A stretch of 64,000 bases of DNA, from the NCBI GenBank assembly GCA_902573015.1, contig CACGIE010000003.1:10589-74588 (forward strand). Reading direction: 5' to 3'. The DNA comes from an uncultured Candidatus Poseidoniales archaeon. Its GTDB lineage: Archaea > Thermoplasmatota > Poseidoniia > Poseidoniales > Thalassarchaeaceae. Of the stretch, positions 18,849 to 58,625 are shown in pieces (positions within the stretch are counted from its first letter, which is position 1; each line of letters starts with the position of its first letter). The translations under genes were made by a program, and so were the position numbers. A model generated the notes under the pieces. The model was not told where the DNA came from. It was given only the letters and a program-made list of their open reading frames with translations, and ran no database searches.

Positions 18849-18925
18849 TGGTGGACGCTGGGGGATTTGAACCCCCGGCCTTCTGGTTGCAAACCAGACG
18901 ATCTTCCAGGCTGATCTAAGCGCCC
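18849..18925 (-). tRNA. tRNA-Ala (anticodon UGC) with genomically encoded 3' CCA
   Basis: Folded by hand: GGGCGCT/AGCGTCC acceptor stem with the G3:U70 Ala identity pair, anticodon loop TTTGCAA, T-loop GGGGG-TTCAAAT-CCCCC, then A-CCA. 77 nt. Confidence 0.9.
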
Positions 18926-52782: not shown

Positions 52783-52953
52783 ATGGCGGGAAGGTTTCTG
52801 AGAGTTACTTGCAAGGATTGCGGTAGTGAGGCCATAATTTTCGATAGGGCAGCAACCACAGTTGCATGTGCTATTTGTGGATCGACTCTTGCAGTGCCAG
52901 CAGGTGGTCTGGCAGAACTTACAGGATGCACTGTCGTCGAGGTTCTGAACTAG
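52783..52953 (+). CDS. rps27e: Ribosomal protein S27e (eS27). The 56-aa ORF is below the ORF-track size cutoff.
   Basis: My translation is MAGRFLRVTCKDCGSEAIIFDRAATTVACAICGSTLAVPAGGLAELTGCTVVEVLN. It has the CxxC-x15-CxxC zinc ribbon and sits in the canonical position between L44e and aIF2-alpha. A GAGGAG lies upstream. Confidence 0.85.
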   Translation: MAGRFLRVTCKDCGSEAIIFDRAATTVACAICGSTLAVPAGGLAELTGCTVVEVLN

Positions 52954-54792: not shown

Positions 54793-56049
54793 CTATCTTC
54801 TGGTTCTTCTCTTGCTCTTGCTTCTGCCACCGGAGGAGGATTCCTCTACGGAAATCTTCCTACCCTTGAACTCTGACTTATTCATCGCCTTTATCGCGGC
54901 CTTTGCCTCTTTCTTGTCTGCGAATGTAATGAAGGCAAAGCCGCGAGGCTTCTTCGTCTCCCTATCCAATGCCATGTGGACGTCGTTCAACTTTCCATGG
55001 ACTGAGAAGGCTTCTCTCAGATCATCCTCAGAGGCATCGTAGGACACGCCTCCCACGAATAGTTTGACTCCGTGCTCCTTCTGTGCCTTTGATCTCGCTC
55101 TCTTCATGACCTCCCTTTCCTTGGCAAGATCTTCCTTGGTTGCCTTGCCCGACTCGACCTTCTCCATGCAGTCTCGACACCTCAGAGGCTTACCTGGAGT
55201 GGGTTTGAAGGGCACCTTGGTATCAATGCCACAAAGAGTGCAAGTTGCGGGGAACATCTCCCTCTGAGGTCTACCCCCTCTGCCTCTTGGAGAAGGCGCC
55301 CTCTTTGCGGATTCGGGAATCTCATGAGTCCAGCCCCTCCTGTGATCCGCGGCAGGTGAAAGGTATGGCCTAGCGCCGTCGTGACCCAGCATGGACTCGG
55401 CCTCCTTGGACCAACGCTCACCTGGGCGATTTAGACTTTGGATATCGGAGTCAGAGGGTATCTCGAAACCATGCCCGAATCCGTTTGAGAGGGCTCTGAA
55501 TCCACTGTAGTCACATCGAGGGCATTCCACATTGAAGTCTGGCTTTCTGTCGCTGTCCAGAAGGTCTGCCCCGCATACGGGGCATGAAGCGTACAGGACG
55601 CCTAGTTTCGGGTCTCCCTTGGTGGAGGCTTTCAGCATGGGCTCCACGTTGATTACTCTTGCACGGACTATGTCCCGCTTCCTCATGCCGTCTCCTGCGG
55701 ATGGGATGAAACGGTCGACTATCTCTGAGACATAGATATCTGCGAAGAGTTTCAATGCTGGAACAGACCTGTGCCCTCCTTCATTGGTCTCTATGTGGAG
55801 GACTCTCAATTCGGCAGTCTTCTCATTGAGCCTATTGACCTCACCTATGATTACATCCCCCATCTTTGGCGAGTTTAATGGGGGTACGGTGGAATCAACC
55901 GAAATCACTCCTGAGTTATTCACAATGCTTCCAGATACTACTGCAACATGCCCTCTTTCTGTGGAGTGGATCCCACTTCCCAACTCTTCCCCGGTCCCGA
56001 TCTCAACGAGGTTTCCCGGCGTGACTTGGTCACCGACTGATGCTGCCAT
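54793..56049 (-). CDS. csl4: Exosome cap subunit Csl4 fused to a CxxC-x17-CxxC zinc ribbon and a C-terminal RRM domain
   Basis: The N-terminal ~190 aa are Csl4-like: VTPGNLVEIG...GSG, S1 region MGDVIIGEVNRL...DIVRARVINV, and Zn ribbon CPVCG...CPRCD. Next comes CTLCGIDTKVPFKPTPGKPLRCRDC. The RRM follows, with RNP2 KLFVGGV, RNP1 RGFAFITF and a basic tail. Confidence 0.8.
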   Translation of the reverse strand: MAASVGDQVTPGNLVEIGTGEELGSGIHSTERGHVAVVSGSIVNNSGVISVDSTVPPLNSPKMGDVIIGEVNRLNEKTAELRVLHIETNEGGHRSVPALKLFADIYVSEIVDRFIPSAGDGMRKRDIVRARVINVEPMLKASTKGDPKLGVLYASCPVCGADLLDSDRKPDFNVECPRCDYSGFRALSNGFGHGFEIPSDSDIQSLNRPGERWSKEAESMLGHDGARPYLSPAADHRRGWTHEIPESAKRAPSPRGRGGRPQREMFPATCTLCGIDTKVPFKPTPGKPLRCRDCMEKVESGKATKEDLAKEREVMKRARSKAQKEHGVKLFVGGVSYDASEDDLREAFSVHGKLNDVHMALDRETKKPRGFAFITFADKKEAKAAIKAMNKSEFKGRKISVEESSSGGRSKSKRRTRR

Positions 56050-56104
56050 CGGCCCACCGACCCGAAGACCCCCTATGAACGGTACGGCAGTAAAAGAAGA
56101 GGAA

Positions 56105-56719
56105 TCACTGGGGAGAAATACGCCAAAGTGAGGCTCTAGTTCTTCCCCTCATTCTTGAATGATGCCCATAAGTTGCGGGGAGGGCGAATTCTAGATTTCC
56201 GTATTCTTCAGAAGACCAGTCAAATTCCTTGAAGAAATTCCTGATGTGTGTCGCTCTTGAGCTATGCATCAAATGTGCAATGGTGCCGATTGAGATGATT
56301 TCCTCTAAAAATGGCCTATCAGAGGCTTTCTTTTGAGTTCCCCACGGAGGATTGGATACTACAATATCGGCTTCACGGATTTCAATATCCTTTTTACCGA
56401 TTTTAGAATTTATAATTTTAACACGATCACTGATTCCTAGAGACTGGGCATTTCTAGTGGAAACTTCACAAGATTCTACGTCTGAATCCACCAGTATTGC
56501 TGACCCCGCCCCCAATAGAACGGCTCCAATCCCCAGAATCCCGTTTCCACACCCCAAATCTACTACTCTACAACCGGGCTTTAGATCATTGAACGATTGA
56601 ATATCGAAAAGCCATCTTGCTGCAATTTCTCCCTCTGTCTGGTATTGCTCAAGATTCAGATCAGGGTCCGATATTCCCTCCAACTTTGAGAGTTTGATTG
56701 CTAACGAGCGTAGGCGCAT
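56105..56719 (-). CDS. SAM-dependent methyltransferase with an NPPW motif (COG2263/METTL5-like)
   Basis: VVDLGCGNGILGIG (motif I) and VVSNPPWG (motif IV). It is in a same-strand tandem immediately upstream of csl4. Confidence 0.75.
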   Translation of the reverse strand: MRLRSLAIKLSKLEGISDPDLNLEQYQTEGEIAARWLFDIQSFNDLKPGCRVVDLGCGNGILGIGAVLLGAGSAILVDSDVESCEVSTRNAQSLGISDRVKIINSKIGKKDIEIREADIVVSNPPWGTQKKASDRPFLEEIISIGTIAHLMHSSRATHIRNFFKEFDWSSEEYGNLEFALPATYGHHSRMRGRTRASLWRISPQ

Positions 56720-56806: not shown

Positions 56807-58075
56807 ATGGAAGCAATGGGGCTGGCCTATGTGGCGTTGGGGATGCTAGCGGGTGCATCCTTGGGATGGGCACTGGCTAGGTCAAGAACCATGTCGGAAA
56901 CAAATTCAGTAGAAGAGGAACTGATTAGGACGAAGGCACTTCTGGAAGTTGGAAGCAAATCGGAAGAAAAGACACATCAGCAGATGCTGGATGGGTTCAG
57001 AATAGCAGCTGGAGAGGCCTTCTCTAAAGCTGTAGAGACTGCTGACAAGCAAAAAGAGTCCTCATTCAAGAAGGCTACAGAGGATCTTAGACAGGACCTT
57101 GGAGGATATATCGAAGCAATTCAAGACGCTAAGGAGAAAGACATTGCAAGAGTTGCCACATTAGGTGCCAAGGTCGACAATGTGAGTGCTCTGGGGACAA
57201 GCCTCGCCCAGGAAACAAGAGAGCTTACCTTGGCTCTGAGAGGTGATTCCCAGGCACAGGGAGCTTGGGGGGAAGTAGTAGTTGAGAACCTGTTGCAGAG
57301 TATGGGTTTTGTTGAGGGAAGGGGCTACATCAAGCAAGAGTGGGATAAAGGAAAGAATGGTGAGAAGGGTAAAAGGGCGGATTTCATACTGAAACTACCT
57401 GAAAACCGTCAAGTGGTAATCGATTCGAAGGTCTCCCTGACTGCTTATACAGAATTCGTGAATGCGGAAGATGATGCAACCTCTGATTCGGCGATGAAAG
57501 CGCATTGCAGGTCTATCAGAGAACATTCAAAGAAATTAGCTACTAAGAACTATGAGGACATGGAGGGGTACAACACTCCTGACTTCGTCCTAATGGTGGT
57601 CCCCCTGGAAGGAGCTTTCATCGATGCAATGAGAGCGGATCAGAATCTCTACGAGGATTTACTCGTAGACAGGAGGGTGAAGGTTGTTAGTGGTTCGAGT
57701 CTGATGCTTACTCTAATGCTCATTCAGGAATTATGGAAAAGAGAGAAACAAACTAGTAACCAGAAAGAGATAGTGGAAAGAGGAGGTAGGCTCCATGACA
57801 AGGTTGTTCTATTCTTGGAGACGTTTACAGCCTTGGGGTACGAACTGGGACAAGCTACAGATGCATATCAAAAGGCTCTGGAGCAACTTAGCTCGGGTTC
57901 GGGGAACGTCATAAGGCAAACTGAGATGCTAAAGGAGCTAGGTTCCAAGACTAAGAAGGACTTGCGCGAAAAGAGTGGTTTGAGAAGTCTAGCGGAGAGG
58001 GCGGAAGAGGAGGAGTCATTTCCTGAGTCTTCTTCGGAAGACCATGATAGATTGGGAGAAGCACAAATTCAATGA
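56807..58075 (+). CDS. rmuC: DNA recombination protein RmuC family
   Basis: An N-terminal TM helix and a coiled coil are followed by GAWGEVVVENLL...RADFILKLPENRQVVIDSKVSLTAY, which is the restriction-endonuclease-like core typical of RmuC. Confidence 0.8.
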   Translation: MEAMGLAYVALGMLAGASLGWALARSRTMSETNSVEEELIRTKALLEVGSKSEEKTHQQMLDGFRIAAGEAFSKAVETADKQKESSFKKATEDLRQDLGGYIEAIQDAKEKDIARVATLGAKVDNVSALGTSLAQETRELTLALRGDSQAQGAWGEVVVENLLQSMGFVEGRGYIKQEWDKGKNGEKGKRADFILKLPENRQVVIDSKVSLTAYTEFVNAEDDATSDSAMKAHCRSIREHSKKLATKNYEDMEGYNTPDFVLMVVPLEGAFIDAMRADQNLYEDLLVDRRVKVVSGSSLMLTLMLIQELWKREKQTSNQKEIVERGGRLHDKVVLFLETFTALGYELGQATDAYQKALEQLSSGSGNVIRQTEMLKELGSKTKKDLREKSGLRSLAERAEEEESFPESSSEDHDRLGEAQIQ

Positions 58076-58625
58076 AGTCGTCAATATCGTTGGCGAATAT
58101 ACTGTTCTAGATCTTTCCAAGGGCCATTGGGTAGCTCCTGAGACGGAGTTCAGCGTAGGGAAGTATGATGAGCTCAGACCTGGCATGTATAACACAGAGA
58201 TATTTGCTGGAGAACGCTTCCTCCACGTGGGCATCGATATTTGCGGACCTGTGGGCACCCCTTGTATGTCTTTCATGGAAGGGGAGATATCACACTTCGG
58301 ATACAACCCAGAACCAGGAGATTACGGAAATGTAATAATTTCCAAACACGATTTGGGCGGAGTAAGTCTGTGGGCCCTATATGGGCACCTGAGCGATGAG
58401 TCAATAGAAAAAATGAGAGTGGGCATGAAGATTTCTCGTGGAGAGGTAATTGCATGGTTCGGGGATTATCACGAGAACGGCGGATGGGAGCCTCACTTAC
58501 ACTTCCAACTATCTTTGGTTGAGCCGACTACTCACGACCTGCCAGGTGTCGTTTCCCCCCTAGAAAGAGAGCAGGCTCTCAGAGACTATCCAGATCCCAG
58601 ATTAGTTCTTGGGCCACTCTACTGA
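58044..58625 (+). CDS. M23 (LytM-type) metallopeptidase domain protein with no signal peptide
   Basis: HVGIDICGPVGTP (HxxxD), YGHL and PHLHFQL (HxH). It overlaps the rmuC 3' end by 32 nt. Confidence 0.65.
   Translation: MIDWEKHKFNEVVNIVGEYTVLDLSKGHWVAPETEFSVGKYDELRPGMYNTEIFAGERFLHVGIDICGPVGTPCMSFMEGEISHFGYNPEPGDYGNVIISKHDLGGVSLWALYGHLSDESIEKMRVGMKISRGEVIAWFGDYHENGGWEPHLHFQLSLVEPTTHDLPGVVSPLEREQALRDYPDPRLVLGPLY

Follow-up and report, generated by a model that had tools for sequence, protein, structure and literature searches.

A putative exosome cap subunit Csl4 with a zinc finger and RRM tail in Marine Group IIb archaea

Domain organization of the extended Csl4 protein

The window examined in this work, a DNA stretch of 64,000 nt, comes from a Marine Group II (MGII; Poseidoniales) archaeon and carries at 54793-56049 (minus strand) a single open reading frame (ORF) of 418 amino acids (aa), which begins with ATG and is free of internal stops. 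Its product opens with a complete Csl4 at aa 8-191; a zinc finger of the CxxC-x17-CxxC type (aa 263-297) and an RNA recognition motif (RRM; aa 330-399) follow in that order, and the tail that follows the Csl4 body amounts to 224 aa. The protein is 99% identical to its counterpart in the metagenome-assembled genome (MAG) REDSEA-S43_B8. A sequence-only reading of this locus had proposed the Csl4, zinc finger and RRM identities, and all three were borne out by hidden Markov models and fold comparison; the peptides quoted in that reading, i.e., PSPRGRGGRPQ (aa 252-262), CTLCGIDTKVPFKPTPGKPLRCRDC, KLFVGGV, RGFAFITF and the basic tail SKSKRRTRR, are present as well. We consider it probable that in Marine Group IIb (MGIIb; Poseidoniales, Thalassarchaeaceae-type) this gene is the ortholog of csl4, which codes for a cap subunit of the exosome, and that the subunit is furnished here with an RNA-binding tail.

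For the segments described below, residue invariance was counted among 19 MGIIb homologs unless another set is named, and the ratio of nonsynonymous to synonymous substitution rates (dN/dS) is the median against the window gene for the ORFs of 21 genomes. The structure was modelled by AlphaFold2 (AF2) from a 79-sequence alignment, with a mean predicted local distance difference test score (pLDDT) of 86.7. This model superseded an earlier one made with the 19 close homologs, in which the Csl4 half had a pLDDT <50. When the AF2 model was compared to the PDB by Foldseek, Archaeoglobus fulgidus Csl4 was the best match, followed by eukaryotic Csl4 chains, Rrp4/Rrp40 and RRMs.

The Csl4 body (aa 1-194) is made up of an N-terminal domain (aa 1-58; 55876-56049), an S1/OB domain (aa 59-150; 55600-55875) and a C-terminal zinc ribbon (aa 151-194; 55468-55599, CPVC...CPRC), all on the minus strand as are the remaining segments of the protein; the boundaries of the first two domains are approximate. 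The NCBIfam Csl4 equivalog model PRK09521 matches aa 8-191 over model positions 2-178 of 180 (E=8.4e-25). In a phmmer search of the N-terminal half against PDB sequences, the A. fulgidus Csl4 chain 2ba1_A was the sole significant match (E=4e-11, aa 11-194). Both the model and this alignment cover the N-terminal and S1/OB domains, and the alignment extends to the zinc ribbon of 2ba1_A. Foldseek aligned the same chain with E=1e-15 and a template modelling (TM) score of 0.73 normalised to the target, and the matches to archaeal, yeast and human exosome Csl4 chains (E 1e-15 to 1e-10) rank above Rrp4/Rrp40. AF2 gave pLDDT >90 over most of aa 1-220, and ∼90 for the N-terminal domain with strands at aa 27-52. 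Thus the three-domain Csl4 fold (N-terminal domain, S1 and zinc ribbon) is present in both the AF2 model and the Foldseek comparison. C156, C159, C176 and C179 of the zinc ribbon are all invariant; among 79 Csl4 sequences C156 and C176 are invariant, and C159 and C179 are at least 90% conserved. The S1/OB residues that are invariant across all architectural variants of the family (see below) include D65, R125, D126, R129 and G150. The dN/dS of the Csl4 part is 0.07.

The CxxC-x17-CxxC zinc finger (aa 263-300; 55150-55263) matches Pfam zf_Tbcl_2 (PF23477) over aa 263-297 with 48.1 bits against a cut-off of 27 (E=9e-13), and NCBIfam TIGR04272 with 49.6 bits against a cut-off of 36. Its four cysteines (C270-x2-C273-x17-C291-x2-C294) are invariant, and so is the sequence VPFKPTPGKP. 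The finger shows the lowest dN/dS in the protein (0.04) and a pLDDT of 89-95. Zinc binding has been demonstrated for Methanosarcina mazei small proteins with this domain (PMC12704099). The finger is joined to the RRM by a charged Glu/Lys/Arg segment (aa 301-327; 55069-55149), in which AF2 placed a helix of 22 residues (aa 305-326, pLDDT >90; dN/dS 0.15 for the connecting helix). A distant family member, P0126, has two copies of the zinc finger plus helix, and over 47 aa the sequence here is 55-62% identical to either one; from this comparison the two elements appear to form one cassette.

The canonical RRM (aa 328-404; 54838-55068) was recognised by Pfam RRM_1 (PF00076) at aa 330-399 with 73.9 bits against a gathering threshold of 20.7 (E=9.5e-21, model positions 1-69 of 70). 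F331 of RNP2 (LFVGGV) and G370, F371, F373 and F376 of RNP1 (RGFAFITF) are invariant. The AF2 secondary structure, with strands at aa 328-333, 354-361, 368-376 and 400-403 and helices at aa 341-349 and 379-389, is that of a beta-alpha-beta-beta-alpha-beta fold, and Foldseek aligned it to solved RRMs with TM 0.73-0.96 normalised to the target. The RRM is 44% identical to that of CIRBP/hnRNP A18 (5tbx) and has a dN/dS of 0.06. The protein ends with a basic tail (aa 405-418, SSGGRSKSKRRTRR; 54793-54837 including the stop codon) of net charge +7 and pLDDT <50, whose sequence varies between homologs yet remains basic (dN/dS 0.16).

Between the Csl4 body and the zinc finger, the sequence-only reading had seen a Gly/Arg linker. 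PSPRGRGGRPQ is indeed there, but the region is more than a linker because aa ∼200-245 form a strongly conserved motif, which had been missed. This clade-specific junction motif of about 55 aa (aa 195-250, LNRPGERWSKEAESMLGHDGARPYLSPAADHRRGWTHEIP; 55300-55467) directly follows the zinc ribbon, has the consensus LNRPGxRWSxEAExxLGHDGARPYLSPxADHRRG and is among the best-conserved parts of the protein, with 25 invariant residues and a dN/dS of 0.08. Across all architectural variants, W213 is invariant and N207, G210, R212, E218 and D235 are at least 90% conserved. No family in Pfam or NCBIfam matches aa 195-250. The first half of the motif (aa 191-220) was modelled as two short helices with pLDDT 86-95; for aa 221-260 the pLDDT is 52 or lower. 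The motif is followed by a short Arg/Gly (RGG-like) linker (aa 251-262, APSPRGRGGRPQ; 55264-55299) with a net charge of +3 and pLDDT <50, the length of which varies between homologs by insertion of G/R runs.

The start codon of the gene is the ATG at 56047-56049. The window offers no start codon upstream and M1 is invariant, and therefore 56049 is likely the true csl4 start. The 36 nt in front of the ATG (56050-56085, minus strand) would translate as PFIGGLRVGGP, and homolog gene calls of 437-446 aa include a stretch of this type as an N-terminal extension. A G-rich stretch, GGTGG, located 5 nt upstream of the ATG resembles a Shine-Dalgarno site inside an operon.

Conservation of the gene and its neighbourhood in Marine Group II

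Relatives of the whole protein were detected in 29 species-representative genomes, all of them MGII and three of them single-cell genomes. A complete ORF (417-430 aa, no internal stops) could be extracted from 21 of the 29, among them the single-cell genomes AH-287-M04, AG-343-E09 and AG-422-I20, a type of assembly free of binning artefacts. In the protein database the best 120 of 340 matches, down to 60% identity, are all 388-479 aa long with both RRM_1 and zf_Tbcl_2; the fusion is found in more than 100 protein clusters of this length. With dN/dS of 0.04-0.16 across the segments, every part of the protein is under purifying selection. We concluded that the gene is real and conserved throughout the clade.

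We then surveyed Csl4 more widely by a filter-free search with aa 1-202 as query against 1.84 billion representatives, which returned 253 matches. All full-length matches above 97 bits are 387-487 aa in length, and the canonical Csl4 of ∼190 aa appears only from about 75 bits; no canonical-length csl4 paralog from the clade was seen among these matches. Pfam analysis of the long representatives revealed several architectures: Csl4 with two RRMs in seven representatives (P0123, P0125, P0129, P0136, P0137, P0140 and P0141), Csl4 with one RRM (P0134), Csl4 with two zinc fingers and a long RGG tract (P0126, on a 3.0-Mb contig), and Csl4 with the motif only (P0142). According to the source names, P0140 is from Poseidoniaceae (MGIIa) and P0136 from Poseidoniales, and P0123 and P0141 are given only as Ca. 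Thermoplasmatota. The LNxxGxRW motif is common to all architectural variants. The forms with two RRMs have an additional conserved acidic C-terminal motif, SxRExxAxxEEG, which the window protein lacks. Comparison of the window RRM to RRM1 and RRM2 of these forms gave mixed scores, and its assignment to either one is ambiguous. The RRM fusion noted in the sequence-only reading is real and has company: across the clade, Csl4 proteins occur with RRM or zinc-finger tails, and the window protein belongs to this set. The simplest reading of these architectures would be that the extension with the motif was gained once, in an ancestor, and that its RNA-binding cassettes were exchanged afterwards. That the same Csl4 and motif scaffold carries alternative cassettes fits selection for having an RNA-binding module of some kind on Csl4. 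The remaining long Csl4 representatives, with extensions at either end, were considered as comparable fusions and rejected, as they contain no recognisable extra Pfam domain except for one Prok-RING match. Database names for the family are inconsistent and mostly refer to the zinc finger ("CxxC-x17-CxxC domain-containing protein", "hypothetical", "cold-inducible RNA-binding protein", "nucleolin", and occasionally "Csl4" or "RRM-containing protein/Csl4"), and the link to the exosome has thereby been hidden.

The gene lies 55 bp from its upstream same-strand neighbour (56105-56719, minus strand), which encodes a METTL5/PH1948-type methyltransferase with NPPW in place of NPPF (as NPPWG). This enzyme is a close homolog of human METTL5 and of Pyrococcus horikoshii PH1948, with PDB matches to 1wy7 (E=2e-27) and human METTL5 (6h2u, E=1e-24) and Pfam matches to MTS/PrmA; human METTL5 is the 18S rRNA m6A methyltransferase. 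The two genes are probably co-transcribed. The sequence-only reading had described the pair as a conserved tandem, and this was confirmed: the adjacency is kept in all MGII loci that reach far enough upstream, and the pair is also found in the loci of the variants with two RRMs or two zinc fingers. Downstream, csl4 converges on the cluster L44e-S27e-eIF2alpha-Nop10-PAC2, an arrangement kept in MGII loci. MGIIb and MGIIa loci share the synteny NMD3-PGI-M23...MTase-Csl4, where MTase stands for the methyltransferase. From this shared synteny and the methyltransferase pairing it follows that the variants are positional orthologs of one csl4 gene. A canonical Csl4 of Thermoplasmata, by contrast, lies in a MiaB-like-Csl4-RpoL-TruD context. 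Neither the window nor the first 29 loci contain a standalone zinc-finger or RRM gene. Its fold, its cysteines and its genomic position make the protein a Csl4; its sequence score lies just below the curated threshold, and its assembly with the exosome ring is predicted.

Several other features of the neighbourhood were recorded. In several MGII lineages and in the variants with two RRMs, a radical-SAM protein of 364-602 aa is encoded directly downstream of the extended csl4 (for example L018 7270-9078, L030 11407-12501 and L114 11429-13204). The window has no radical-SAM gene at this place, and csl4 converges directly on PAC2. A 56-aa ORF at 52783-52953 (plus strand), between L44e and eIF2alpha, encodes ribosomal protein S27e (PF01667, 63.1 bits against 24.5), and the gene is kept at the same position in 25 MGII loci. 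Rps27e has been stated to be absent from Poseidoniales and Pontarchaea (PMC7414124 supplement); the gene was probably missed, at least for MGIIb, because it is short. At 56807-58625 (plus strand), a bacterial-type RmuC gene (Pfam 268 bits) and an overlapping M23 peptidase gene are located beside the genes for translation and the exosome; some MGII loci have another gene in place of RmuC or a very divergent copy (26-57% identity, or no match). The first ∼19,000 nt of the window (1-∼19000) form a low-GC block (0.41-0.44 compared with ∼0.50 elsewhere) bounded by a tRNA gene at 18852-18925. It encodes a polysaccharide flippase, an AsnB-type asparagine synthase, a heparinase II/III-like protein, a GT1/GT4 glycosyltransferase, a 1092-aa protein with Ephrin_rec_like repeats and an RCC1-repeat protein, and looks like a variable cell-surface or glycan genomic island.

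A proposed tethered RNA-capture arm and its alternatives

Archaeal exosome caps are trimers of Rrp4 and/or Csl4 seated on a hexamer of Rrp41 and Rrp42. We favour the view that the extended protein is such a cap subunit with a tethered RNA-capture arm; its assembly into the exosome, its RNA binding and its effect on the choice of substrates are inferred. The Csl4 body would be mounted on the Rrp41-Rrp42 ring like any Csl4, and the tail would emerge from the zinc ribbon, itself placed at the periphery of the cap. The first part of the junction motif (aa 195-220) may pack against the zinc-ribbon side of the cap or touch the ring, and the RGG-like hinge would let the arm swing. Single-stranded RNA would be captured by the RRM through the aromatic residues of RNP1 and RNP2, with the zinc finger and the RGG-like and basic segments assisting. 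The captured RNA could then be fed to the S1-lined pore, where the local RNA concentration would be raised, and up to three flexible arms per cap may provide avidity. In this arrangement the exosome would carry its own substrate adaptor, which might replace or add to trans-acting partners such as DnaG.

A number of observations weigh against this view. The Csl4 part is divergent: its PRK09521 score of 87.6 bits falls just short of the curated cut-off of 90, and the Pfam EXOSC1 match is faint. The inter-domain geometry of the AF2 model is uncertain (predicted TM score 0.51), and aa 221-260 are unmodelled. Genes for Rrp41, Rrp42 and Rrp4 are absent from the window and the 35 related loci checked. 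A metagenome scan with an Sso/Pab/8xfx Rrp41 profile picked up nothing beyond relatives of thermophile sequences, which share 59-69% identity with Sso Rrp41 and of which none is evidently from MGII, and we found nothing explicit in the literature on Rrp41 or the exosome complex together with Marine Group II. On the other side, a survey whose data set covered Poseidoniales reported Rrp41 in 46 of 49 archaeal clades (PMC7414124 supplement). Halobacteria, Methanomicrobiales and Methanococci reportedly lack both Csl4 and Rrp41 (PMC7144898), and because of this joint absence a Csl4 that is kept under selection argues for the presence of an exosome.

The lack of core genes in the loci checked and the sub-threshold scores of the Csl4 part would also be accommodated if the protein had become an exosome-independent RNA binder or chaperone, with the Csl4 scaffold repurposed together with the RRM and zinc finger. 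It might then act as a cold or mesophile chaperone of RNA, or in ribosome biogenesis together with the probably co-transcribed METTL5-like rRNA methyltransferase. The RRM is most like those of cold-inducible and glycine-rich single-RRM proteins (5tbx as above, and 4c7q), and the gene is tightly linked to the METTL5-type enzyme with ribosome and translation genes nearby. We regard this explanation as unlikely, however. The Csl4 body has kept all three domains, and its best fold matches come from Csl4 chains of solved exosome complexes; the gene is the positional ortholog of csl4, and the survey showed no canonical-length paralog from this clade. Moreover, a Csl4 without an exosome core is unreported, and three orders are reported to lack the two together (PMC7144898).

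It is also possible, but we think improbable, that the protein is a genuine exosome subunit whose tail has a regulatory or structural function, such as gating of the S1 pore (auto-inhibition), docking of a partner (DnaG, Nop5, a helicase or the ribosome) or localisation. The most conserved new element, aa 195-250, has no nucleic-acid-binding signature and is retained in P0142, which has neither RRMs nor zinc fingers. Some RRMs are known to make protein contacts, and the acidic tail S-R-E-x-x-A-x-x-E-E-G of the variants with two RRMs resembles a peptide ligand. Against a purely regulatory tail, the RNP1 and RNP2 aromatics that stack on RNA bases are invariant, and the companion modules (RGG hinge and basic tail) are basic. 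Lineages swap RRM for zinc-finger/RGG cassettes, and the common denominator of these cassettes is nucleic-acid binding.

The last explanation, that a csl4 gene and an RRM/zinc-finger gene were wrongly joined near 55300-55500 by assembly or annotation, is barely credible: although some NCBI annotations of the MGIIa variant in MAGs are split into a 193-aa Csl4 fragment (P0290) and a 115-aa "RNA-binding protein" (P0289), those entries begin within RRM2, at an internal Met, lie on either side of a GGC-rich Gly/Arg tract and have full-length members in the same 90% cluster, and a chimera or frameshift, which the sequence-only reading had raised, is effectively excluded by the conservation of an identical layout across independent genomes and clusters together with purifying selection across the junction. 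P0289 (HIA39672.1 and others, from Poseidoniales MAGs) is the C-terminal RRM2 of the MGIIa Csl4 protein with two RRMs, whose Csl4 half has an entry of its own as a partial hypothetical protein. The split has the look of damage from assembly or gene calling and not of a natural pair of genes.

If the extended protein is an exosome cap subunit with an RNA-capture arm, a broader proposal can be made, which we hold tentatively: the exosome cap may have been re-engineered in Poseidoniales and related marine lineages by the addition of an LNxxGxRW anchoring motif and interchangeable RNA-binding cassettes to Csl4, that is, a built-in adaptor of eukaryotic style (NEXT/TRAMP-like). The cassettes seen are RRM-RRM in MGIIa and zinc finger-RRM in MGIIb, with zinc finger-zinc finger-RGG elsewhere; if the proposal is true, swaps between sister families would retune the set of RNAs that are degraded or tailed. 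The built-in adaptor could also take over or supplement the role that DnaG plays in Sulfolobus. It may have evolved to help a helicase-poor archaeon, mesophilic or living in cold water, to cope with structured RNA.

Few archaea of the surface ocean are as abundant as Marine Group II, which is uncultured; to our knowledge almost nothing is known of their RNA metabolism. All archaeal exosomes that we know to have been characterised are from thermophiles, with a Csl4 of ∼190 aa and separate tuning proteins such as DnaG. The RRM is a domain uncommon in archaea and characteristic of RNA processing in eukaryotes. The marine lineages would, if the proposal holds, have arrived at a different solution, in which the core machine has its adaptor built in and sister lineages have exchanged the adaptor's modules. 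The extended Csl4 is a directly testable system; it also adds a new conserved motif and sets right database names that obscure the link to the exosome.

Comparison with known systems

In the full-text literature we found no paper describing a fusion of Csl4 to an RRM or to a zinc finger. The closest known protein is the canonical archaeal Csl4 (A. fulgidus AF_0206, PDB 2ba1/3m7n; PRK09521; arCOG00676), which has the same order of N-terminal domain, S1 domain and four-Cys zinc ribbon. The canonical protein stops ∼5 residues past the zinc ribbon (179-200 aa), whereas the window protein runs 224 aa further. The Csl4 proteins with two RRMs from MGIIa and related marine lineages (P0140/P0311, P0136, P0141 and P0123) share with it the Csl4 body, the LNxxGxRW motif, the synteny and C-terminal RRMs; they carry two RRMs, no zinc finger and an acidic end, while the window protein has the zinc finger and helix, a single RRM and a purely basic tail.

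A functional analogy is offered by Sulfolobus. S. solfataricus DnaG binds only to Csl4-exosomes and confers a preference for poly(A) or A-rich RNA (PMC3672285, PMC4227792). Here too an extra RNA-binding module would reach the exosome via Csl4 and alter the substrate preference, and the docking of DnaG on Csl4 is a precedent for a Csl4-based RNA-binding module that sets this preference. The two systems are not homologous: DnaG is a separate protein of the TOPRIM family bound non-covalently, and the window modules are a covalently fused RRM and zinc finger.

Eukaryotic exosomes are served by adaptors with RRMs and zinc knuckles, such as NEXT (RBM7, ZCCHC8 and MTR4), TRAMP (Air1/2) and Nrd1-Nab3. 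The logic is the same in that RRM and zinc-finger binders deliver RNA to an exosome with an RNase PH ring, but the resemblance is one of analogy only. In eukaryotes the adaptors form complexes of their own and work via a helicase, whereas the modules of the window protein sit in the core cap subunit itself, with no helicase as far as seen. In bacterial PNPase, KH and S1 domains are covalently linked to an RNase PH-like core, and in this enzyme the RNA-binding domains are likewise hard-wired to a phosphorolytic ring. In PNPase the KH and S1 domains, types that are already found in archaeal caps, are fused to the catalytic chain; in the window protein the RRM and the CxxC-x17-CxxC finger are added on top of an S1 cap.

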